From the sequence record SRR22947725_2388: 55,334 bases of DNA, one strand, 5' to 3'. The position numbers were made by a program, and so were the translations under genes. Shown here one piece after another: positions 20,346 through 51,988 of this stretch. Numbering within the stretch: the stretch's first letter is position 1; each line of letters begins with the position of its first letter. The notes under the pieces were generated by a model. It had not been told where the DNA came from. It saw only the letters and a list, made by a program, of their open reading frames with translations, and did not search any database.

Positions 20346-21422
20346 TTATTCCAGGAAATCTGAAACCTTGGCTACCCAGATTTGCCCCTGACAGGTGAAG
20401 CTGAAATGAGTCCCGGATGGATTGAGCTTCACGTTTCCAATGTTTTTCATTTCGATATCAGGGTCAAGAATCTCGGATGTTTCTGTCTCTAAATTCCATA
20501 GTTCTAGCGTCTGTTGGGTTGATCTGATTCTAAAATAAGGGAAAACCTGTGTCCTTCGAATGCGCCATCCAAGTGATAATCGTTCATATGCAATCAGCCA
20601 TGCATTGCCATTCTGGCAGTGCGATACAGAGGAGTTTTTGGTTACCAACATTTTCGGAACCATCAAATGCCGTTTTGATGCATCGTTCGCTGTCTGTTTG
20701 GCAAAGGATATCACATGCAGCGACAAGCTCTTTTCAGACCGTTTCATGAGATGCTCAAAGCACAGAACCCCGAGAGTGCCGTTTTTCATGAAGACATAAG
20801 GAGGGCTTGGAAAAAAGGGAAACGTCAGCTTGTTCCAGCCTGAATAGGAGGCATTTGTCGAAAATAAATGTGGATCCAATGAAAATTGGGTTTCTTTGAA
20901 TGTTGTCGATGGATCAACTTTCCAGGTGATCCATCCAGATTCATCAGGCAACCAGGTCAGATTCAACATATTATTAAGCCCTTCTTTCAATTCGACGGTC
21001 TTCTCACTTTCCCATTCATGGAGAAACTGCGCTTGCTCCGTTTTATTACCCATCACAAGAGCGAGGTGTTTTCCTGAAGGCGATGACTTTATCTCAAAAT
21101 GATTTCCTCGCTCTTCATGGTCCTGGAGATGAGGAGACAGGGCTTCCATCAACGATTCGTGGCCATCGTTTATATCCGTTTTCACACACAGAAAATCCCC
21201 TTGGTTTTTTTCTCGAAGAAAAAAGATTTCGTGATCAGATAGCCATCCATGATGCCTTGGTGCCTGAAGATCCATTTTAATCACCGGTTTGGCCAGTGCT
21301 GCCAGTGATTTTGGCTTGGATGTCTGAAGTCTGATGAATAAGTAGGCCGAAATGAAAACCAGAATGACCATGGCTGAAACTCCGACAATCAAGGAGATCC
21401 GAGCGAAGGATTTGAATCTCAT
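20346..21422 (-). CDS. Membrane-anchored hypothetical protein with TolB/PD40-like propeller repeats
   Basis: N-terminal TM, then repeats 'GWLSDHEIFF', 'SSPSGKHLAL', 'TWLPDESGW', 'LNPSGTHFSF..GQIWV'. ATGA overlap with the upstream gene. Confidence 0.6.
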   Translation of the reverse strand: MRFKSFARISLIVGVSAMVILVFISAYLFIRLQTSKPKSLAALAKPVIKMDLQAPRHHGWLSDHEIFFLREKNQGDFLCVKTDINDGHESLMEALSPHLQDHEERGNHFEIKSSPSGKHLALVMGNKTEQAQFLHEWESEKTVELKEGLNNMLNLTWLPDESGWITWKVDPSTTFKETQFSLDPHLFSTNASYSGWNKLTFPFFPSPPYVFMKNGTLGVLCFEHLMKRSEKSLSLHVISFAKQTANDASKRHLMVPKMLVTKNSSVSHCQNGNAWLIAYERLSLGWRIRRTQVFPYFRIRSTQQTLELWNLETETSEILDPDIEMKNIGNVKLNPSGTHFSFTCQGQIWVAKVSDFLE

Positions 21423-22864
21423 TTCCCGAGGCAATAAAGCGTTTGGCTCGTTCTCATATACAGCCTGTTCTCAACGATCGCAGGTGTCGCCATGATTGTT
21501 TCTTCGAAATCAATTTGAAACATGATATTGAGTTCCGGATTACCTGCTTCGATAACGCTGACAACGCCTGATTGAGCCGCTACGAGAATTTGTTTTCCAG
21601 CTGCAACAGGGGATGCGTAATAGTCGCCCAAGGCCCCAAGTCTTTCTTCGCGATAGATAACTTTACCCGTCGTTGCGTTCATGCATGAAATCATTCCTCC
21701 ATTTTTAACGAGATAAACATGGCCTTGATAAGCGAGTGGCGAAGGAACGTAGGGAAGTCCGCGAGTTTGTTTCCATGACAAGGTTGGAGGGCTTTTGAGT
21801 GATGGGCCAGGTTTAAGAGCCAAAAGTGCATTTTCACTTTTGCTGAAGATATCCGACATCGTTTCCCACTCCTTTCGAACAATCTTTCCATCCTTGTCTG
21901 CATCGATGTAAGGGAAGTGCATGCGCGCAGGCCCTGTGGCTTCAGAGCGCGCAATAGATGCATCTTTGTTTTCATCGTTTTCAAGAAGTTCATCAAAATT
22001 GGGGATTCTTGAAACACCCGCCCCCATGGTCCACCCAGAGACGTATAGATGCTGATCATCAAACGCGGGGGATGCGACTGTTTCATTTGGCAAACCTCCA
22101 ACTTCCCATGCGAGTTCCCCGTTTGAGATATGGTAGGCACACACGCGCAAGGTCCCGGAAGTGATGACAAGTTCGGGTTTTTCTGAAGGCCATGCTATGG
22201 GGGTGGAAAACCCTCGCCGAAAACCGGGCCGGGGTGTTTTCCAAACTTGTTTGCCGGATGCCGCATCTACGCAGAGAAGGTGGGAGCTGATATCCTGATC
22301 AACCTGTAAAAAGAGACGTCCCTCTGCCAGCACTGGGGAAGATGAAGCGCCGTGTTGGGTCACTGGGACAGGAAGAGGGAGTCTCCATTGCTCATTCCCT
22401 TCCATATCGTAGGAGAGCAAGCCATAAGACCCAAAGTATACAAACACAGATCTGCCATCTGTCGTCGGTGTCGAATTGGCTGGTGTTCCGTTGCGGTGAC
22501 CTCTTTCGATCTTCGTGGGCGGGATAGATTTTTTCCACAGTAGAGATCCATCATGTCGATTCAATACCTGTGTAGTGAGTTGATCGGATTCGTAGGTGGT
22601 CACCAAAAGTAGATCTCCCCAGATGCTGGGTGAGGAATGGCCTGGGGCGATATTCTTTTTCCAAATAACGGAACGATCAGGTCCGAACGGGATCGGAAGC
22701 GAACTGCCCGGAGCTCGGCCTTGACCATGTGGTCCCCTAAATTGAGGCCAATGGGCACTCTCAGACTGGAGAGCCATGACAGAATGAAACAGCAATGCAG
22801 TCCACAAAACCGATACCATTAACAAATTCGAAGGAACACGATGAATGGTATTTCTACAGGGCAT
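21419..22864 (-). CDS. PQQ-like (BamB-type) beta-propeller protein with EF-hand insert
   Basis: 'WPQFRGP.G.G', 'GHSSPSIWGD', 'G...WK' repeats, 'YASPV', 'ATPAI'. EF-hand-like loops DENKDASIARSE and DADKDGKIVRKE. Confidence 0.87.
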   Translation of the reverse strand: MPCRNTIHRVPSNLLMVSVLWTALLFHSVMALQSESAHWPQFRGPHGQGRAPGSSLPIPFGPDRSVIWKKNIAPGHSSPSIWGDLLLVTTYESDQLTTQVLNRHDGSLLWKKSIPPTKIERGHRNGTPANSTPTTDGRSVFVYFGSYGLLSYDMEGNEQWRLPLPVPVTQHGASSSPVLAEGRLFLQVDQDISSHLLCVDAASGKQVWKTPRPGFRRGFSTPIAWPSEKPELVITSGTLRVCAYHISNGELAWEVGGLPNETVASPAFDDQHLYVSGWTMGAGVSRIPNFDELLENDENKDASIARSEATGPARMHFPYIDADKDGKIVRKEWETMSDIFSKSENALLALKPGPSLKSPPTLSWKQTRGLPYVPSPLAYQGHVYLVKNGGMISCMNATTGKVIYREERLGALGDYYASPVAAGKQILVAAQSGVVSVIEAGNPELNIMFQIDFEETIMATPAIVENRLYMRTSQTLYCLGK

Positions 22865-37614: not shown

Positions 37615-38724
37615 ATGATCAGTTTTGATATACATGGATCAACGAGGCACCTTCAGCCGACGCTGTTGAGGGCTTGTCTTTGGTCTGTTTTATTTCATTT
37701 CATGGTCATTGCTTCCATTGAGCTTCTCCACCATTACGGATTCACTGAAAAAGGGCCACTATCCTCCTTGCTGGCTCCCAAGATGCCTGAGCTCAATGCT
37801 GCTGAATTAGAAAAAGAGTTGGAGATCACCCTGGATAAAGAACCTGAACCCAGCATTTTCTTTGATGCTGACCCTTCACTCGAGACGGAAGAGAAACCTG
37901 AGGACACTCCGTACTATGCCGTGATTGATTCCATCGCAGGCAACCCGGATATCTCTCAGGATTTGGATCAGCCCAAGCTCGAGGGCTCACAGGATAAAGT
38001 ATTCAAGACCACGGATACTGCACCGGGCGAAGAAATAACACCGGAACCTCCTGTCAGTGGGCTTCAACCATTCGTGCCTGAAGACGTCGAATCACCACCC
38101 GATACCGAGTCGGTTGAGGATTTTGAAACTGAGTCTTTGGAACCTCAGGAAGTGGATGTTCAAAATGATGGTGTATTCGAAGAAGCGATTGCCGTTGAAA
38201 CCAAAGAGCCCGAGATCAAACAGCCGGCTGAGATTCTGACGCGCATCAAGCCGCGAAAAGCTGTTCCGGTTCAGCAATCAACTCCCCCGAGAAAGGAAAG
38301 AACCCGCCCACGAACCATCGCAGAGGCCAAGAAACGCAACGGAATGCTTTTGGGCGAATCCATGAAACAGGAAGGCGGCGTAAAGAAATTTCGTGTTGAA
38401 TCCTCACCTGATCTTTTGGCAACGCCATTTGGGGCTTACGATGCAGCCATTATACAGGCCATTCAACAGCGCTGGTTTGGATTGCTCGAAGGATTGCCTT
38501 CTGCGCGCAATGCATCAGGGAAGGTTACCGTAAAATTTCAGCTCATGTCGAATGGGAAGGTCATGGAAATGTCGGTGGAGGAAGATACAGTGGGCGTGAT
38601 TCAATCTTTACTCTGTCAACGTGCGATCAGTGATCCTGCGCCTTACGGAAAATGGCCAAGTGATATGCGCCGTCTCGTAGGTGCTGATTACCGGCAAATA
38701 AGATTTTCTTTTTATTACAATTGA
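37615..38724 (+). CDS. TonB/TolA-like energy transducer
   Basis: TM with S-x3-H ('WSVLFHF'), long acidic Pro/Glu linker, TolA/TonB C-domain ('YDAAIIQAIQQRW...GKVTVKF...NGKV...AISDPAPY'). Upstream of exbB/exbD. Confidence 0.78.
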   Translation: MISFDIHGSTRHLQPTLLRACLWSVLFHFMVIASIELLHHYGFTEKGPLSSLLAPKMPELNAAELEKELEITLDKEPEPSIFFDADPSLETEEKPEDTPYYAVIDSIAGNPDISQDLDQPKLEGSQDKVFKTTDTAPGEEITPEPPVSGLQPFVPEDVESPPDTESVEDFETESLEPQEVDVQNDGVFEEAIAVETKEPEIKQPAEILTRIKPRKAVPVQQSTPPRKERTRPRTIAEAKKRNGMLLGESMKQEGGVKKFRVESSPDLLATPFGAYDAAIIQAIQQRWFGLLEGLPSARNASGKVTVKFQLMSNGKVMEMSVEEDTVGVIQSLLCQRAISDPAPYGKWPSDMRRLVGADYRQIRFSFYYN

Positions 38725-44707: not shown

Positions 44708-46063
44708 TTAGGCCATCCAACCCGGTCTGTATTCGCGTTGGATGATGTCTGAAATATCCATATTTTTGGCCTGAAGTCGCGTGCTATCCCATTCGATGCG
44801 CCCCCCAGCCTTGAGAGCAGCGTTACCCAGAAGGATCGATTCTGTCATTTGTGAGGCATAATCGAAATTGGATAGGGCAGGTTTACCGCCACGCATTGCT
44901 TCTACCCATTCATTCTTCATGGCCTGATCACCTCCACCTATGCGGGGGATCCAGGCATCCGGTGCCTCATAGTCCTTGAAATCATCGCCGGGCAGCAGTT
45001 TCCAACTCGATCCGTAATCATTGGGTGAGTAAAGTATACCTTTGTCGCCTACAATAATTGAACCACTGTTGGTTGGTTTTTCACCGTGAAAAAGATCCAT
45101 GGGGGGAAGGTTCTTTTTTCCATCCGGGAATTTACCTTCATACCAGTAATAGCTCAGAGGAGGCATGGCACCTCGGGCACCAAATTCGGTTTTGGTGGTG
45201 GCCCATGCGGGAAAAGTTTCTTCATTGATCGGACCATGATCCAAGGCCTCAACGCTGAGAGGATGACCAAGATTGAGTGCCATGAAAGCCAGATTCGCTG
45301 TATGACAGCTCATGTCTCCGATAGCTCCAGTCCCAAAGTCCCACCAACCGCGCCACTTGAATGGATGGTAGGCATTGTGATAAGGGCGATCGGGAGCGAC
45401 TCCCAGAAATAGATGCCAGTCCACATGATTTGGAATCGCGGGGGTCTCGTTCGGACGTGCGGTAATGGAAGGAGCTTGTGGCCACACTGGGCGATTCGTC
45501 CATACATGAACCTCCCGGACGGCACCAATCGCACCTGATTGAATCACTTCTACTCCTCGGCGAAGACCATCAGAGGCGGTGCCCTGATTGCCCATTTGGG
45601 TGGCTACCTTGTATTGACGTGCAACCTGCCCCATGCGCCGAGCTTCATACACTGAATGCGTCAGGGGTTTTTGACAATAAACATGTTTGCCGAGGCTCAT
45701 GGCCAACAAACCCGCAGGAGCGTGCATGTGATCAGGAGTACTGATTGTTACCGCATCAATTTCGGTATGCATCTCCTCGAGCATCTTCCGAAAGTCCTTG
45801 TATTTTTTGGCTTTTGCAAATTTTCCACCCTTCGCATCCAGTTTTGTTAGATCAATATCACAAAGAGCGACAACATCACCCAAATTCCCTGCTTGGTCGA
45901 TATCTCCAGACCCCTTTCCACCCACACCAATACCGGCAAAAGCGATGCGGTCATTGGCTCCAAAAACGCGTTTTGGGAAAAAGTTGAAAGTGAACGCGGA
46001 TGCGGCAGCGGTCCCAATGAAGGACCGGCGAGAAACATAGGTCTTACTGAATTTATTGGCCAT
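44708..46063 (-). CDS. Gfo/Idh/MocA-family oxidoreductase, Tat-exported
   Basis: Tat SRRSFIG, 'GIGVGGKG', 'STPDHMH', 'HVYCQKP', 'WRGWWDFGTGAIGDM.CH'. Alternative start at 46072. Confidence 0.94.
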   Translation of the reverse strand: MANKFSKTYVSRRSFIGTAAASAFTFNFFPKRVFGANDRIAFAGIGVGGKGSGDIDQAGNLGDVVALCDIDLTKLDAKGGKFAKAKKYKDFRKMLEEMHTEIDAVTISTPDHMHAPAGLLAMSLGKHVYCQKPLTHSVYEARRMGQVARQYKVATQMGNQGTASDGLRRGVEVIQSGAIGAVREVHVWTNRPVWPQAPSITARPNETPAIPNHVDWHLFLGVAPDRPYHNAYHPFKWRGWWDFGTGAIGDMSCHTANLAFMALNLGHPLSVEALDHGPINEETFPAWATTKTEFGARGAMPPLSYYWYEGKFPDGKKNLPPMDLFHGEKPTNSGSIIVGDKGILYSPNDYGSSWKLLPGDDFKDYEAPDAWIPRIGGGDQAMKNEWVEAMRGGKPALSNFDYASQMTESILLGNAALKAGGRIEWDSTRLQAKNMDISDIIQREYRPGWMA

Positions 46064-46403
46064 GATATCCATGTAGTGAAAATTTGATTCAGGGTGTGAT
46101 TTCAAAGTAATCACTCCAAAAAACCAAAGCAAGACTTGATCTCTTCAAAGTGTCCTTAAAAATGGAAAGATCAGGCTGTGTCCTGATGCATTGGGTCAGG
46201 CATGAGGAGCGGCACTCTGAGAGTCATGCAGCGTTGTTGCGAGACGTCTATTTTGCAGGTAAAGGATAATAGATGAGTTTTGAATCCCTTCCCCCTCTCC
46301 AGCGTGGGTGATTCATGCAGGGCTTGTGTCAACTTCATTTGATTCAGGATTTGTCATTTTTCCAATTGCAGCAGGTAAGTAATCACGGGTAAACTGTTAA
46401 TCG

Positions 46404-47111
46404 ATGGTTATGAAGAAAACACTTGGACGTGGACTTTCCCAGCTGATGAAGGGGAACGAGACCAAGGGAACCGATGCCAAAACGGCTAAGGCCCTTGCGA
46501 GTCCGGTGGATGCAGCTGAAGCTCCCTTGTCCGGCGTTTCGAAACTGATGCAAGGTCATCACGAACCAGCTGAAGTCCAGCCTGCAGCTGATGGGGTATC
46601 CAACCCTTTTCAGCAAGACGCCCCTTCCAGGACGGTTTTTTCAGTGCGCCTTGTGCCTGACTGGATCTACTACCTGAGTGATGTTGTTTTGCTGTCAGCG
46701 GTTCTCTGGATGGTTATACTCAGCCCTACAGCACCTACGTGGGTCGAATGGACGACCAGTCTGTTGCTAACCGTCCTGGCTGGTTTGATAGGTGTTTATC
46801 CCTGGGCTCGCAACGTGCTGGGCAACGATTCGCCTGTTCAGTCAGGTGAAATACCTCAGTGGAGTCTGGCTTCGAAGACGCAGCCCAATGGAACCGAGAA
46901 GGTATATGTCATGCATCTCCACGAGCCTTATACCGCAGTCGAAATTACGGAAACCAGTTGGAGCGGTGTACAGCCCAGACCCATCTGGCTATCGGGTACC
47001 CCTGATATCTCACCTGAAGACATGAAGCGCTTGCTCATGGGGGCAGCCGATTTTTACAAAAAACATCAGACTGACAAATCGCACTCGAATTCCAACGTAA
47101 GTGCAGCTTGA
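46404..47111 (+). CDS. Hypothetical two-TM membrane protein with N-terminal ParB-like LGRGL peptide
   Basis: 235-aa ORF filling the intergenic space. Starts 'MKKTLGRGLSQLM', has a low-complexity linker, two hydrophobic helices (about aa 85-106 and 113-134) and a soluble C-terminal domain. Confidence 0.8.
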   Translation: MVMKKTLGRGLSQLMKGNETKGTDAKTAKALASPVDAAEAPLSGVSKLMQGHHEPAEVQPAADGVSNPFQQDAPSRTVFSVRLVPDWIYYLSDVVLLSAVLWMVILSPTAPTWVEWTTSLLLTVLAGLIGVYPWARNVLGNDSPVQSGEIPQWSLASKTQPNGTEKVYVMHLHEPYTAVEITETSWSGVQPRPIWLSGTPDISPEDMKRLLMGAADFYKKHQTDKSHSNSNVSAA

Positions 47112-47671
47112 GGCGTCCACTCGGATTGTCTGAAAAGAGGGACCGTGTCTCCCTGCGTCTCAAATTCTCATATTTTTAACCCGAACGGGTCGTCAGTAAG
47201 TTCGACGATACTGCAACCTCAAAGTTTCCTTCCTCAGATGATTGGGTAGTTGAATAATGAGGTAAGAAAAACTTTGGAGATGACTTTGTCTTTGTTGCTC
47301 CGGAGTTTCATGTTCCTTTGAATCATGGGTGAAATAACCCTTTCCACTGCAGTAATAGAACCTTTTTGAGGGCGTGTTATTTGTGACTGAGAACACTTTG
47401 TCGCTGCAAGCAATTCAACCCATGCAAGGCCGAGAGTTTGATAGGTCATTCACGGGATAATGATTTCAAATTGCCTGCTGTATTCGGATCATTGACGGTC
47501 TCTTTATTGCGATTGGCAGAGGCTTCAGCCTGCTGCTTCGCTTCTTTGATCGGATTGAATCTGAAGTCTCATTGGCGTTCCCTTTGAGTTGAGCTCCATT
47601 GATAAAGATGATCCCCAGTGTTTTCTGATAATTCTGCTCAGCGATTTTCAATTACCTCGTAGCATTAGATA

Positions 47672-48724
47672 TTACTTCATCACCCCATGTTCGATGGATT
47701 CCATTGTCTTATCTGATGGAGGTTTAAGGCTGGCTGCTCCCGCATACCACAAACCTAAAACGGTGGTTGGTAAAAAGAAAATCAAATGCATGACGAGAGC
47801 ATAGGCCAAGGCGACTTCTCGGGATGGATGCAGATTTAATACTGCAAATCCGAAAATCATACCCGCTTCATAAATACCCCAATAACCAGGAGCGGCAGGA
47901 ATCATGACTGCCAGCGATTCGATGACAACCAAGGCGATTGCTTGCATCAAGGTCATGGTGATACCATCGAAACCCCATCCCAGGGTCTGAGCCGCGATGG
48001 CATTGATGATCCAGGTCAGTACTGAATAAAAAGTTATCCATAAGAATCTTCGAGGTTGTTTGATTGCTTGGAAGCCCCGGACAATTCCTTCAAGGCCATC
48101 TTCGATGGATTGATGCATGCTTTCCGAAATGGGGATCTTGCGCACGAATTTCAATAGCTTGATTCGTACTTTTCGAAACATGAGTAATCCCAATCCGCAA
48201 ATCATGATACTTGATCCCACAACTACTTTTTGAATCAGTGGAGCCAACATGCTCCCTCTAATCACAAATCCCCCAAATTCGACCGACATCCCGGGGTCGA
48301 TTGGGGGGATGAATGCCATGGAAACAATAAACAAGGCAATGAGAGTGACTCCATCAAACACTCGTTCGGTGACAATGGTTCCGAAGGCGATGGGTACTCC
48401 TGTTTTTTGTTTTTTACCCACATAGATTGCCCTCATGAATTCTCCCATTCGACCCGATGGCAGTACGTTATTAAAAGCAAAACCTACCATGATTGGTTTG
48501 AATAGATGATTTGAGGCTACTGGTTTATCCTCAGGAAAGAGTAGCGACCAGCGAAGCGCACGCACATAGATACCGGCATAGAACACAATCACCGTCACGA
48601 GAAGCCAGAACGGATGTACTTCGCTCAGCGCCCTCCAGAGTGCTTTCCAGTCAAGGTTTTGAAATACCCAGATACAGCTGAGCAGAGACACCAAAAGCCC
48701 AAGATAGACAGCCAGCTTTTTCAT
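47672..48724 (-). CDS. UPF0104/LPG-synthase TM (AglD/flippase-like) membrane protein
   Basis: 'RALRW', 'GFAFNNVLPSGRMGEFMR', 'TERVFD', 'PAAPGYWGIYE'; multi-TM. ATGA overlap with the GT4 stop. Confidence 0.9.
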   Translation of the reverse strand: MKKLAVYLGLLVSLLSCIWVFQNLDWKALWRALSEVHPFWLLVTVIVFYAGIYVRALRWSLLFPEDKPVASNHLFKPIMVGFAFNNVLPSGRMGEFMRAIYVGKKQKTGVPIAFGTIVTERVFDGVTLIALFIVSMAFIPPIDPGMSVEFGGFVIRGSMLAPLIQKVVVGSSIMICGLGLLMFRKVRIKLLKFVRKIPISESMHQSIEDGLEGIVRGFQAIKQPRRFLWITFYSVLTWIINAIAAQTLGWGFDGITMTLMQAIALVVIESLAVMIPAAPGYWGIYEAGMIFGFAVLNLHPSREVALAYALVMHLIFFLPTTVLGLWYAGAASLKPPSDKTMESIEHGVMK

Positions 48725-49842
48725 GGTTCGGGTGATCCCTTCAGCGCCATGGATTCCAGCCAATCACAGGCCTTGGGGAGTATGGCATCCCAGTGAAATT
48801 GTTTGGCGCGGTTCCAGGCTTCGATCCTGTATTGCTGGTATCTCTCAGGTTTTTTGATCATGTACTGGATTTCATCAGCAAGTGATTCGGGAGTTTCCTT
48901 TTTCGAGACCCTTCCGGTGACATGATCAAGAGTGGATTCGGTCAGGCCAGCCACCGGATAGACCGCTGAAGGTGTTCCCATGGCATTTGCCTCAATAATA
49001 TTCAAGCCCCAGCCCTCACGCACTGAAGTATGCAATAGTATATGAGCTTCCTGAAGAGACTGATCCTTTTGCTTCTCATCCAAAAATCCAGCGAAGGTCA
49101 CACGCTCATTTAAACCAAGTTCACCCACGCATTGTTTGAGTTGAGGCATGGATTCGCCCGTTCCGATGATTTTGAGTACTGCATCGATTTGGCGGTCTTT
49201 GAGACAGCGTAGGGTCTGGATCGCATGGTCGATACGTTTGTTGGGGGCAAGCCTGGAAACGACGGCCAAGCGTAATGGAGCGCTCATCAGTTTTTCTGGA
49301 AGTGAAGGCAAGGCCTGCGTGTAGACTCCATAAGGAATACGTTTGACGTTCTGGATGCCCCGCGCATGCAGCATGTCTTCAGTTCCCTTGCACGCGGTCC
49401 AGAAAGGCGTTTGGCGATAGAGCCAATGCGTGAATTGCTCCTGGATTCTTCCGATTTGATCCAGTGGCCATCGATAAAATGAAGACCATATTGGTCCTAA
49501 AACCTCGTGTATGTAGGAAACGCATTGAGTTTGAGTCCACCAGGGAGCAAACCAGGGAATGCCATGATGTTGATCAATCACGAGATCGAATCGAGCTTGC
49601 GATTGAAACCAGCGATTGGCGGCCAGTATAGATGTTCCCATGCCGCCACGTCGTATAATGTGAATGCCGTTCAAGATAGATTCCTGTTCACAATCTGGGT
49701 ATGCGTTTGCAAACCACCAGACGTCATGGCCTTTTGATGAAAGTGCACTGAGATAAGCCAACGAAACCCTTTCTGCCCCGCCTGAAGCAGGGTTTTGCGG
49801 GTCACGCCAGTTGAGCATCAAAAATCTCAGTTGTCTCTCCAT
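48721..49842 (-). CDS. Glycosyltransferase family 4
   Basis: 'LNWRD...GGAE', 'SRLAPNKRID', 'SVREGWGLNIIEANAMGTP' (EX7E motif). Confidence 0.93.
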   Translation of the reverse strand: MERQLRFLMLNWRDPQNPASGGAERVSLAYLSALSSKGHDVWWFANAYPDCEQESILNGIHIIRRGGMGTSILAANRWFQSQARFDLVIDQHHGIPWFAPWWTQTQCVSYIHEVLGPIWSSFYRWPLDQIGRIQEQFTHWLYRQTPFWTACKGTEDMLHARGIQNVKRIPYGVYTQALPSLPEKLMSAPLRLAVVSRLAPNKRIDHAIQTLRCLKDRQIDAVLKIIGTGESMPQLKQCVGELGLNERVTFAGFLDEKQKDQSLQEAHILLHTSVREGWGLNIIEANAMGTPSAVYPVAGLTESTLDHVTGRVSKKETPESLADEIQYMIKKPERYQQYRIEAWNRAKQFHWDAILPKACDWLESMALKGSPEP

Positions 49843-50041
49843 ATTATAATAAAATCCGGTCAATAACTCACTTGAGGTCAAATCCATCCACGAGCCTGGT
49901 AGGGGCGCCGTATTCGCGATCATCACCATGGACGAGTGATTAATTTAACCCTTTACACCCCAAGGGCAAGATTACACTCTGATGCTCTTACACCGGACAA
50001 GCATTTCTCAGTTGAAAAGATCAAAGAAAGATTTGATATCA

Positions 50042-51988
50042 ATGAAGGAACCCCTTTTCTCTCCACTGAACAAGGAGGCTTTTTGGATCACCATCCAACG
50101 TTCACAGGATTACCTTTTGAACGCTCAGTTACCAGATGGATACTGGCAGGGCGAACTGCGGATTGACTGCACATTGGTGGCGGATACTATTTGCTTCAAG
50201 CATTGGGACGGAAAAGTGGACGAAGTCTGGCAGCGCAAGGCCGTAAATCATTTATTGAACCTGCAATTACCGGAAGGCGGATGGAATATATACCACGGAG
50301 GACCTGCCGAGGTGAACGCCACGATTAAATCTTATCTGGCACTCAAACTTGCTGGATTGACGGAAGCGGATCCTCGCATGTCACGCGCTCGCTCGGTTCT
50401 GCTGAACCTGGGTGGAGTCCCTCGGATGAACACTTTTTCAAAACTCTATCTTGCCTTGCTGGGGCTCTTTCCCTGGAAATATTTACCGACCATACCTTGC
50501 GAAGTGATTTTGATTGGCAACTGGTTTTATTTGAACTTTCACGAGATGAGTAACTGGACGCGCAGCATAATCGTACCCTTGTCCATCATCAATCATTTCA
50601 AGCCTACAAGGAAACTGCGTCATCCCGTGACAATCGATGAGTTGTATCCGGATGGTTTTCACGAACGTGATCTTCGGCTGCCGCACACCCCGGAGATTTT
50701 CTCATGGCGTAACTTGTTTCTAGCCCTTGATAAGGTGAATAAGTTAGCTGAGAAATTTGCACAATGGGGTATTCATCCATTCCGGAGACAGGCTTTGAGA
50801 AAGAGCGAAGATTGGATGCTGGAACGATTCGAGGGCGCTGATGGTTTGGGAGCTATCTGGCCATCGATGCTCAATTCGCTCATTGCGATGAAGGCAATGG
50901 GCTACGAGGATGACCACCCGCAGGTGTTGCGTGCCGAGCGTGAATTAAAGAAACTTGAGCACGAGACCGAAACTGAGGTGCGCATTGAACCTTGTCTTTC
51001 CCCTGTCTGGGACACGGCGATTGCCTGCGCTGCCTTAAGTGCTTCCGGAGTTTCACCTGCGAACCCCAGAATGAGGAAGGCGGCTGATTATTTAGTTTCC
51101 AAGGAAATCCGCTTCAGAGGAGACTGGAAATACAAGAACGAGGCCGATGTTGAACCCAGTGGGTGGGCTTTCGAGCATGAGAATAAATGGAGTCCTGATG
51201 TCGACGATTCCGCCATGGTGATGCTCGCCTTGAGGCGCATGCAATCCAGTGACAAAAAAGCCCAGCAATCCTGTCTCAAGCGTGGTTTGGAATGGCTCAT
51301 GACTTTTCAGTGCAAGGGGGGAGGCTGGGCTGCGTTCGATAAGGATTGCACCAAGAGCATCATGGAAAAAGTGCCCTTCGCGGATCACAATGCCATGCTT
51401 GACCCTGAGTGTGCAGATATCACCGCGCGCATACTGGAACTATTGGGAGTTGAGGGTCTTACCCTTGAGCATCCTCAAGTGAAACTGGGCGTTCAATACC
51501 TGCGCTCTCAGCAGGAGGAGGATGGCTCTTGGTACGGGCGTTGGGGGGTTAATTACCTTTATGGGACATGGCTTGCACTCAGGGGGCTGAGAGCCTTGAA
51601 AATGGATATGCACCAACCTTGGCTGCAGAAAGCCAAGGACTGGCTGGAGAGTGTTCAATTGAAAGACGGTGGTTGGGGTGAGCGTTGTAACAGCTATGAA
51701 TATCCTGTTTTAAAAGGCCAGGGACCTAGCACAGCTTCCCAAACGGCCTGGGCTGTCATGGGCCTTTGTGCTTTCGGTGATCCTGGCCTGCCAAGTCTCC
51801 ATCGAGGTATTCAGTATCTCATCGATATGCAATCCGAGGATGGTTCGTGGCCCGAGGAAGAGACAACGGGCACTGGATTTCCCCTCGTATTCTACCTTAA
51901 ATACGATATGTATCGGAATTCCTGGCCATTGCTTGCTCTGGCAACTTATCAGGATTTGCTCAAGGCGAATGCCAATGCATCCCTCTAA
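50042..51988 (+). CDS. shc: Squalene-hopene cyclase
   Basis: DXDD motif 'PDVDD', QW repeats (QLPDGYW, QLPEGGW, QEEDGSW, QLKDGGW, QSEDGSW), 'PCLSPVWDT', 'GTGFP', 'FYLKY'. Confidence 0.97.
   Translation: MKEPLFSPLNKEAFWITIQRSQDYLLNAQLPDGYWQGELRIDCTLVADTICFKHWDGKVDEVWQRKAVNHLLNLQLPEGGWNIYHGGPAEVNATIKSYLALKLAGLTEADPRMSRARSVLLNLGGVPRMNTFSKLYLALLGLFPWKYLPTIPCEVILIGNWFYLNFHEMSNWTRSIIVPLSIINHFKPTRKLRHPVTIDELYPDGFHERDLRLPHTPEIFSWRNLFLALDKVNKLAEKFAQWGIHPFRRQALRKSEDWMLERFEGADGLGAIWPSMLNSLIAMKAMGYEDDHPQVLRAERELKKLEHETETEVRIEPCLSPVWDTAIACAALSASGVSPANPRMRKAADYLVSKEIRFRGDWKYKNEADVEPSGWAFEHENKWSPDVDDSAMVMLALRRMQSSDKKAQQSCLKRGLEWLMTFQCKGGGWAAFDKDCTKSIMEKVPFADHNAMLDPECADITARILELLGVEGLTLEHPQVKLGVQYLRSQQEEDGSWYGRWGVNYLYGTWLALRGLRALKMDMHQPWLQKAKDWLESVQLKDGGWGERCNSYEYPVLKGQGPSTASQTAWAVMGLCAFGDPGLPSLHRGIQYLIDMQSEDGSWPEEETTGTGFPLVFYLKYDMYRNSWPLLALATYQDLLKANANASL

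Follow-up and report, generated by a model that had tools for sequence, protein, structure and literature searches.

The window, i.e., the whole stretch of DNA analysed here (sequence record SRR22947725_2388, 55,334 nucleotides), carries at 46404..47111 (+) an open reading frame (ORF) for a membrane protein that begins with a peptide of the type by which the chromosome-segregation protein ParB/Spo0J contacts the ATPase ParA. A sequence-only reading of this DNA had taken the protein for a candidate membrane-anchored ParB mimic, placing LGRGL at 46422-46436 and a degenerate second copy, GVSKLMQG, at residues 44-51; the ORF and both peptides are present as claimed. Judged by the comparisons described below, the N-terminal motif is more than a chance resemblance. 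Seven related genomic loci were found, all in metagenome-assembled or single-cell genomes of Verrucomicrobiota, one of them a Pedosphaera sp., and the host of the window is a marine member of this phylum. The parts of the gene are as follows.

46404..47111 (+): whole ORF, 235 amino acids plus stop; N-terminus MVMKKTLGRGLSQLMKG
46413..46454 (+): motif 1, KKTLGRGLSQLMKG, residues 4-17; ParB-type ParA-binding motif at the extreme N-terminus
46422-46436 (+): LGRGL, residues 7-11, with the central Arg9 at 46428-46430
46455..46526 (+): linker 1, residues 18-41; sequence variable, length constrained; predicted local distance difference test score (pLDDT) <50
46527..46556 (+): motif 2, LSGVSKLMQG, residues 42-51 (core GVSKLMQG, residues 44-51); second ParB-like hydrophobic motif, here without the central Arg/Lys
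46557..46652 (+): linker 2, residues 52-83; Ala/Pro/Gln-rich disordered tether toward the membrane; pLDDT <50
46653..46721 (+): VPDW anchor and transmembrane (TM) helix 1, residues 84-106; AlphaFold2 helix 87-106
46722..46739 (+): short periplasmic loop, predicted from Lys+Arg counts and AlphaFold2, residues 107-112
46740..46826 (+): TM helix 2 with its predicted cytoplasmic extension, residues 113-141, ending in YPWARN; AlphaFold2 helix 113-141
46860..47096 (+): C-terminal domain, predicted cytoplasmic, residues 153-231; four beta-strands, then a long helix; only in the long 'type A' subfamily
47097..47108 (+): C-terminal tail VSAA, residues 232-235; conserved among the orthologues of alignment A1

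The ATG of the ORF is preceded by an in-frame TAA two codons upstream, so that no 5′ extension of the frame is possible, and the start codon in most orthologues corresponds to the third codon of the window ORF (ATG 46410, MKK...). Residues 4-17 constitute the ParB N-terminal ParA-binding motif, after which linker, hairpin and an unrelated domain follow in place of the ParB/Srx CTPase domain with its GxxRxxA motif; the helix-turn-helix parS-binding domain and the C-terminal dimerisation domain of ParB are likewise missing. The earlier statements that the protein has neither the CTPase motif nor a helix-turn-helix, and that an Ala/Pro-rich linker follows the motifs, hold up: the pattern G..R..A does not occur in the protein, searches of Pfam and NCBIfam with all 235 residues returned nothing at E<=10, the AlphaFold2 model shows four strands and one helix after the hairpin, and linker 2 has the composition described. 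A profile search of PDB sequences retrieved no ParB and nothing below E 0.5. The protein is thus not a ParB, and the peptide is its only ParB-defining feature.

The protein family

A word-indexed search returned 19 homologues with 54-98% identity, none carrying a name, and 15 of 20 sequences entered alignment A1 after four near-identical sequences and one fragment had been set aside. When 1.84 billion representatives were then searched exhaustively with a profile, 25 proteins were obtained at E<=0.001. The wider alignment A2 comprises 27 sequences, from which P0030 and P0039 (fragments) and P0034 (a 967-residue repeat protein) were excluded. Distant relatives with only ~20-33% identity retain the whole architecture, e.g., MSKPVLGRGLGSLLGG...VGRGVGSLLQG followed by hairpin and domain. 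The gene belongs to an undescribed protein family, one without a Pfam or NCBIfam match.

With the A2 profile, 273 of the 301 genomes sampled from the window's order gave a match, hairpin-only paralogues counted. Among the matches listed (150 of 273), about 65 genomes had a match that included the N-terminus, which was full length ('type A') in 13 and short ('type B') in about 52; type A was present in all eight genomes of the window's own family. Across the phylum, 59 of 401 sampled genomes were matched. Outside the window's order the match was restricted to the hairpin (profile positions ~57-147), lying inside ORFs of 360-950 residues, and in the 27 of 29 such ORFs that have the hairpin near their start, it is not preceded by LG[RK]GL.

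Inspection of 29 loci within the family yielded 27 type A or type B proteins, one hairpin-only paralogue (L147) and one mis-walked locus (L146). Type B proteins, at 117-182 residues, consist of motif 1, motif 2, linker and hairpin and stop soon after TM helix 2. A motif LG[RK]x[LI] stands near the start of all 27 type A/B proteins, in the exact form LGRGL in 19, and motif 2 is recognisable in 25 of the 27, seven of which have Arg or Lys before the Gly, as in the VGRGVGSLLQG quoted above. Since motif 1 is universal, motif 2 nearly so, and type B ends after TM helix 2, the conserved core of the family is the two peptides plus hairpin, with the C-terminal domain an add-on of one subfamily that makes up a minority of members. 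The earlier expectation that LGRGL and the hairpin would be conserved together is borne out in the orthologues and in relatives down to ~20% overall identity. Fused forms of 535-2000 residues were not found in the search, which is weak evidence.

The second motif and the spacing of the two peptides are also conserved. G44, V45, L48 and G51 of motif 2 are invariant in A1. The distance between motif 1 and motif 2 has a median of 35 residues with a standard deviation of 3.9 (n=33, one row probably mis-registered), while the stretch between motif 2 and the membrane has a median of 38, a standard deviation of 11.4 and a range of 22-72 (same rows). The inter-motif distance is thus constrained and the length of the membrane tether is not.

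Likeness to the ParB N-terminus and selection on the peptide

The N-terminus of ParB in the window's order reads M[A/S]K[P/T/S]ALGRGLGALLGG (M[AS]K[PTS][AV]LGRGLGALLGG) in 30 of 30 genomes. The ParBs examined from close relatives (G002 and G005) begin MSKTPLGRGLGALLGG, and the window protein starts (MV)MKKTLGRGLSQLMKG, so that the peptide closely matches the lineage's own ParB start. Type B proteins begin, e.g., VAKPALGRGLGTLLG, MAKPALGRGLGNLLG or VSKPALGRGLGNLMQG, following the pattern (V/M)[AS]KPALGRGLGxLLG; set beside the ParB starts, these show that even the lineage-specific residues preceding LGRGL are common to both proteins. In all six genomes compared, the codons for the shared residues differ between the genome's ParB and its membrane protein, indicating that the likeness is kept by selection on the protein and not by a recent DNA copy or gene conversion.

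The specificity of the motif was evaluated in two ways. A six-frame scan of five related genomes with [LF]G[RS]G[LF]xx[LF] gave 76 matches, no more than a reversed-pattern control. Among the 70 matches that were examined, those with the motif <=15 residues from the first start codon of an ORF of >=150 residues were found only in ParB (3) and in orthologues of the membrane protein (4). In G001 and G002, a third locus with 'LGRGLGALL' (L032, L053) was rejected as a chance match, out of frame within a long gene. In addition, a 22-column profile of 29 ParB N-termini (alignment A4; one of the 30 was omitted for a register shift) was searched six-frame through five complete genomes. In G554 the type B protein scored highest, with 36.7 bits vs. 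33.5 bits for that genome's own ParB, and in G452 a type B protein came second, with an E value of 0.24.

Whether the peptide is translated at all is answered by the DNA. The N-terminus MKKxLG[RK]GLSxLM is present in 13 of the 15 A1 proteins, and the other two begin at Met15. For one of these, P0014, the corresponding DNA (L008/L119) does encode the peptide upstream, showing that its Met15 start is a gene-call artefact; KKxLG[RK]GLSxLM is encoded in all eight DNA copies (window and L005-L011). Pairwise comparison of seven copies (window, L005, L007-L011) gave 92 synonymous vs. 52 non-synonymous differences over the 14 codons of motif 1, and 31 synonymous vs. 221 non-synonymous differences over the next 14 codons, in linker 1. 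The synonymous excess in motif 1 and the non-synonymous excess in the adjacent linker indicate purifying selection on the peptide and none on the linker. Together with the upstream stop, this pattern places the start ahead of the motif, not downstream of it. Chance resemblance, or a mis-called start with a peptide that is unmade or functionless, is accordingly highly improbable: the motif is short and two database calls do start at Met15, but the stop two codons upstream, the synonymous substitutions that point to a translated peptide, the persistence of the motif to ~20% overall identity and the coding DNA behind one of the two short calls all argue otherwise.

Membrane hairpin, C-terminal domain and gene neighbourhood

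AlphaFold2 with alignment A2 gave a mean pLDDT of 70.5, whereas an earlier run with the 15 A1 sequences reached a mean of only 46 and was unusable. In the A2 model, residues 16-39, 51-66 and 70-80 have pLDDT <50 and the motif blocks ~50-60; helices span residues 87-106 and 113-141, followed by strands 153-159, 165-171, 177-184 and 188-194 and a helix at 204-232. The mean number of Lys+Arg residues is 2.0 in the 15 residues before TM helix 1, 0.7 in the loop and 2.1 after TM helix 2 (n=27). The predicted topology is thus N-in/C-in, with both ends cytoplasmic and the protein in the inner membrane, which would place the peptides in the cytoplasm; helices and charge counts both fit the two-helix hairpin with a very short loop and cytoplasmic termini suggested earlier. 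P85, W87, L96 and P133 are nearly invariant in A2. Asp93 (46680-46682), within TM helix 1, is invariant in 27 of 27 A2 sequences and is also found in hairpin-only paralogues; a charged residue buried in the hairpin suggests a contact with a partner or an ion within the membrane.

AlphaFold2 also places short helical turns at residues 12-14 and 46-49, which would suit an explanation unrelated to ParA, namely that the motifs are structural and shape or localise the hairpin protein, either as amphipathic helices lying in the membrane plane or as elements for self-association. The N-terminal peptide of Noc is a membrane-targeting helix of this kind, according to the available parts of PMC4331003 and PMC8429893. 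However, the protein is membrane-integral as it stands; the motifs are rich in Gly, of low hydrophobicity and predicted to be disordered (pLDDT ~40-60), and the conserved residues are exactly those of the ParA-binding motif and not an amphipathic pattern. A structural role is therefore improbable.

The hairpin itself is more widespread than the peptides. Paralogues designated type C share the TM hairpin with the signature LPxWxFxxxDxxLL (profile positions ~70-145, E down to 1e-18), but in these no ParB-like peptide precedes it. At L090-L118, from other verrucomicrobial families, a hairpin LPxWPFxLGDxLL... stands ahead of a coiled coil, an extended stretch rich in Pro, Glu and Ala, and a beta-rich C-terminal domain, ...IGIGNKPxLRGxxxGLxWxxGxxMxFxxIGKWRW..., which is conserved and has no Pfam match. 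In the 320-residue paralogue L147, from the window's order, the hairpin is joined to a domain resembling GrpE, for which the Pfam match to GrpE passes the cut-off with an E value of 9.3e-8. Within this phylum, the hairpin seems to be a membrane module open to re-use.

The C-terminal domain beyond the hairpin, noted earlier at roughly 100 residues, is present with an extent of ~85 residues; it is an alpha/beta domain, highly conserved, with pLDDT 86-93 in the A2 model. Its best structural match is AcrIIC2, with Z 6.2-6.4 and a root-mean-square deviation of 3.1-3.4 over 78-82 aligned residues at 7-10% identity, which is under the tool's noise level of about Z 8. Foldseek with the whole model found nothing in the PDB at E<=0.001, a wide VIA-align search and a second search gave nothing above Z 8, the lists being dominated by the helical hairpin, and the ESM Atlas gave no usable match. 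No PH-like chain was among the matches listed in the fold searches of the whole model, and no bPH family of Pfam was matched at E<=10. In the VSAA tail, S233 and A235 are invariant in A1 and A234 nearly so, while the ~12 preceding residues are variable; the distant members P0023 and P0024 likewise end in AA. This ending recalls the C-terminal Ala-Ala of ssrA-type degradation tags.

Around the gene, scans for Rfam families, promoters and terminators revealed nothing beyond chance. Contigs from RNA libraries span the ORF in all four runs examined, which come from at most three studies. One of them (run X2) covers 46144-47148, i.e., ~260 nucleotides before the start codon to 37 nucleotides past the stop, and would fit a monocistronic unit, contig ends not being transcript ends. 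Such contigs are a weak hint of expression and do not prove transcription or transcript ends. A divergently transcribed Gfo/Idh/MocA oxidoreductase gene at 44708-46132 (-) is conserved in all seven related loci (L005-L011) at 86-98% identity, compared with 54-98% for the membrane protein; in L009-L011 the respective values are 86-88% and 54-64%, indicating the faster evolution of the membrane protein. Downstream, at 47672-51988, an LPG_synthase_TM-like membrane protein, a GT1/GT4 glycosyltransferase, a squalene-hopene cyclase and then a PNP_UDP_1 phosphorylase-family gene form what looks like a hopanoid-related lipid locus. The window ORFs 20346-21434 (-; 362 residues) and 37615-38724 (+; 369 residues) have no Pfam family at E<=1e-5.

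In agreement with the earlier remark that no parA lies nearby, no ParA-type ATPase was found among the 35 window ORFs of >=180 residues that were scanned. Neighbouring genes differ among 20 loci taken from different families (SNF2 helicase, MetH, aconitase and others), and a Pfam scan of these loci and the window detected no recurrent partner, parA, parB or division gene. Gene neighbourhoods thus offer no clue to function. The missing linkage to parA would favour an alternative in which the peptides bind another partner, i.e., ParB itself, another P-loop ATPase or a chaperone such as DnaK, and the likeness reflects shared ancestry of a generic short linear motif. An Hsp70-family gene in L155 (G419) and a DnaJ gene in L163 (G409) lie within three genes of the family gene, and these neighbours, taken with the GrpE-like paralogue L147, give a faint hint of a chaperone connection, which may be coincidence. 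However, such neighbours occur at just 2 of 20 loci, the match, which runs over ~14 residues and includes the Gly pattern, greatly exceeds a hydrophobic patch for chaperone binding in specificity, and binding and activation of ParA is the only function recorded for the ParB motif in the available part of PMC12462528. A partner other than ParA is thus quite unlikely.

Proposed action on ParA and comparison with known systems

A potential partner is available, i.e., a Soj-type ParA encoded in the genomes of relatives, which speaks for an action on ParA. The nearest genome, G001 (84% of sampled words in common with the window; 79% complete), encodes one Soj-type ParA of 276 residues, followed by a gene other than parB. 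The two other AAA_31 matches in G001 are a Wzz-type tyrosine kinase and the Fe-S protein Mrp, and no MinD-like protein was found in this genome. Among 61 sampled genomes of the order, 57 encode a Soj-type ParA and 56 a ParB. ParB_N was not detected in G001, which had suggested that the membrane protein replaces ParB; this idea was dismissed given that G001 is 79% complete and that ParB is present in all five other orthologue-bearing genomes. The retention of canonical ParB indicates that the membrane protein is an addition to ParB, not a replacement.

The genes parA and parB are unlinked in these genomes (L012 for parA of G001; L013 and L015 for parB of G002 and G005). A single contig carries both in G452, at ~0.98 Mb and 5.19 Mb, and likewise in G419, where ~78 kb separate them; at 2788607-2789724, G452 contains a further parA-parB-like pair whose two genes are adjacent. 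Non-adjacent parA and parB are unusual for chromosomal ParABS systems.

The peptide of ParB is well characterised. The available part of PMC12462528 reports that the motif alone is sufficient for ParA binding and activation, that two peptides bind per ParA dimer, a linked or juxtaposed pair activating much better than one, and that the hydrophobic residues give binding while the central Arg/Lys is required for stimulation of hydrolysis. From the motif, its position, conservation and specificity and the predicted topology, we infer binding to ParA, stimulation of its ATPase and a cell-biological outcome. Weighed on sequence and prediction, the chance that the protein is a membrane-tethered ParA binder or activator using tandem ParB-mimic peptides may be put at about one half. 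In the proposed mechanism, the two tandem motifs would dock in both symmetric ParB-peptide pockets at the interface of the ATP-bound ParA (Soj) dimer, imitating the juxtaposed peptide pair of the closed ParB clamp. Motif 1, with its central Arg, would then trigger ATP hydrolysis. ParA nearing the membrane would thus be captured and released as monomers, and the membrane would serve as a sink or as a ParB competitor, shaping the ParA gradient on the nucleoid.

A fuller proposition, to which we would give somewhat less than even odds, is that the ParABS system of the order has a third, membrane-integral component. Its peptides, spaced by ~35 residues, would clamp both pockets of a ParA dimer from one chain, and the membrane, or a subdomain of it defined by the hairpin, would be a ParA-hydrolysing sink competing with ParB-parS. 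This would be the first ParA activator made by grafting the ParB peptide on a membrane anchor.

Several observations weigh against an action on ParA. A normal ParB is present, so nothing requires a second ParA activator. Adjacency to parA or parB was never seen for the family gene in 20 loci, with 115 neighbouring ORFs scanned against Pfam, and in the window's own family the sole conserved neighbour is the oxidoreductase gene described above. In G564, G636 and G694, which belong to that family, the A4 profile retrieved only ParB and the type A protein in none of the three at E<=10, and the peptide of the window's subfamily is the most diverged from ParB (LSQLM vs. LGALL). The N-terminal part was matched only in G001 among the 401 sampled genomes of the phylum, so that other verrucomicrobial families manage without the protein. 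Finally, motif 2 lacks the central basic residue in the window protein and in 18 of 25 second motifs.

This last feature bears directly on what the peptides would do once bound. If the hydrophobic residues bind and only the central basic residue stimulates, as PMC12462528 in its available part has it, the tandem peptides might hold ParA without activating hydrolysis and serve as an anchor or inhibitor that tethers ParA-coated nucleoid DNA to the membrane or competes with ParB, with no recycling. Direct ParA binders that are membrane-anchored or pole-associated are known, i.e., TipN and PopZ (available part of PMC9178275). However, Arg/Lys is kept in motif 1 of all 27 members, which is the hallmark of an activating motif, and holding alone is thus unlikely, though it should be taken seriously. 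On sequence, the protein may activate ParA, hold it or compete with ParB. The view of the protein as a membrane-anchored ParB mimic is supported in part: the sequence-level predictions made for it all came true, and it is refined in that the C-terminal domain occurs only in a minority of members and ParB is kept alongside.

Most bacteria rely on ParA gradients to segregate chromosomes, plasmids and organelles, and how cells shape and reset these gradients is a still-open question. In the known ParA sinks, PopZ and TipN, the interfaces are the proteins' own and poorly defined. The interface proposed here could be read from sequence because it would be a copy of ParB's activating peptide, in tandem and membrane-bound. 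A currently unannotated protein family has been defined in one verrucomicrobial order, which may represent an undescribed membrane-bound regulator of chromosome segregation in this order of Verrucomicrobia. If the proposed action is true, the ParB peptide would be a portable module re-used by evolution outside ParB, the family would allow the model of two peptides per ParA dimer to be tested in a natural system, and its ~60-residue peptide would be a simple handle on segregation in the little-studied Planctomycetes-Verrucomicrobia-Chlamydiae (PVC) bacteria.

No description of a membrane protein carrying ParB's ParA-binding motif was found in the literature searched, in which subscription journals are thinly covered. 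Compared with ParB/Spo0J, the family shares the same motif (a basic residue plus LG[R/K]GLxxLL) at the extreme N-terminus, with a disordered linker behind it, and its flanking residues match the order's own ParB. In contrast to ParB, it lacks the ParB/Srx CTPase domain, GxxRxxA, the helix-turn-helix and the ParB C-terminal domain; its body is a membrane hairpin, and it carries two motifs per chain where ParB has one per dimer subunit.

TipN of Caulobacter crescentus is a membrane-anchored polarity factor with two N-terminal TM helices and a large coiled coil that directly binds ParA and tunes segregation (available part of PMC9178275). It resembles the window protein as a membrane-anchored two-TM protein, and interaction with ParA would be common to both. 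However, a coiled coil is missing from the window protein, and that part of the source mentions no ParB-like peptide in TipN; the order of parts is also reversed in the window protein, with the peptides first and then the hairpin.

In Myxococcus xanthus, PomX (and PomY) are non-ParB activators of a ParA/MinD ATPase, according to the available part of bioRxiv 10.1101/2025.12.01.691545. PomX likewise carries an ATPase-activating peptide on a non-ParB protein, but it is soluble and scaffold-forming, acts on PomZ and has no membrane anchor, and its peptide is not a copy of that of ParB. The activating peptide of PomX sits at the N-terminus.

Noc of Bacillus subtilis, a ParB paralogue, also links the ParB world to the membrane via an N-terminal peptide (PMC4331003, PMC8429893, available parts). 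The window protein is its mirror image: where Noc is a ParB body with a membrane helix for its peptide, the window protein is a ParB peptide with a membrane hairpin for its body.

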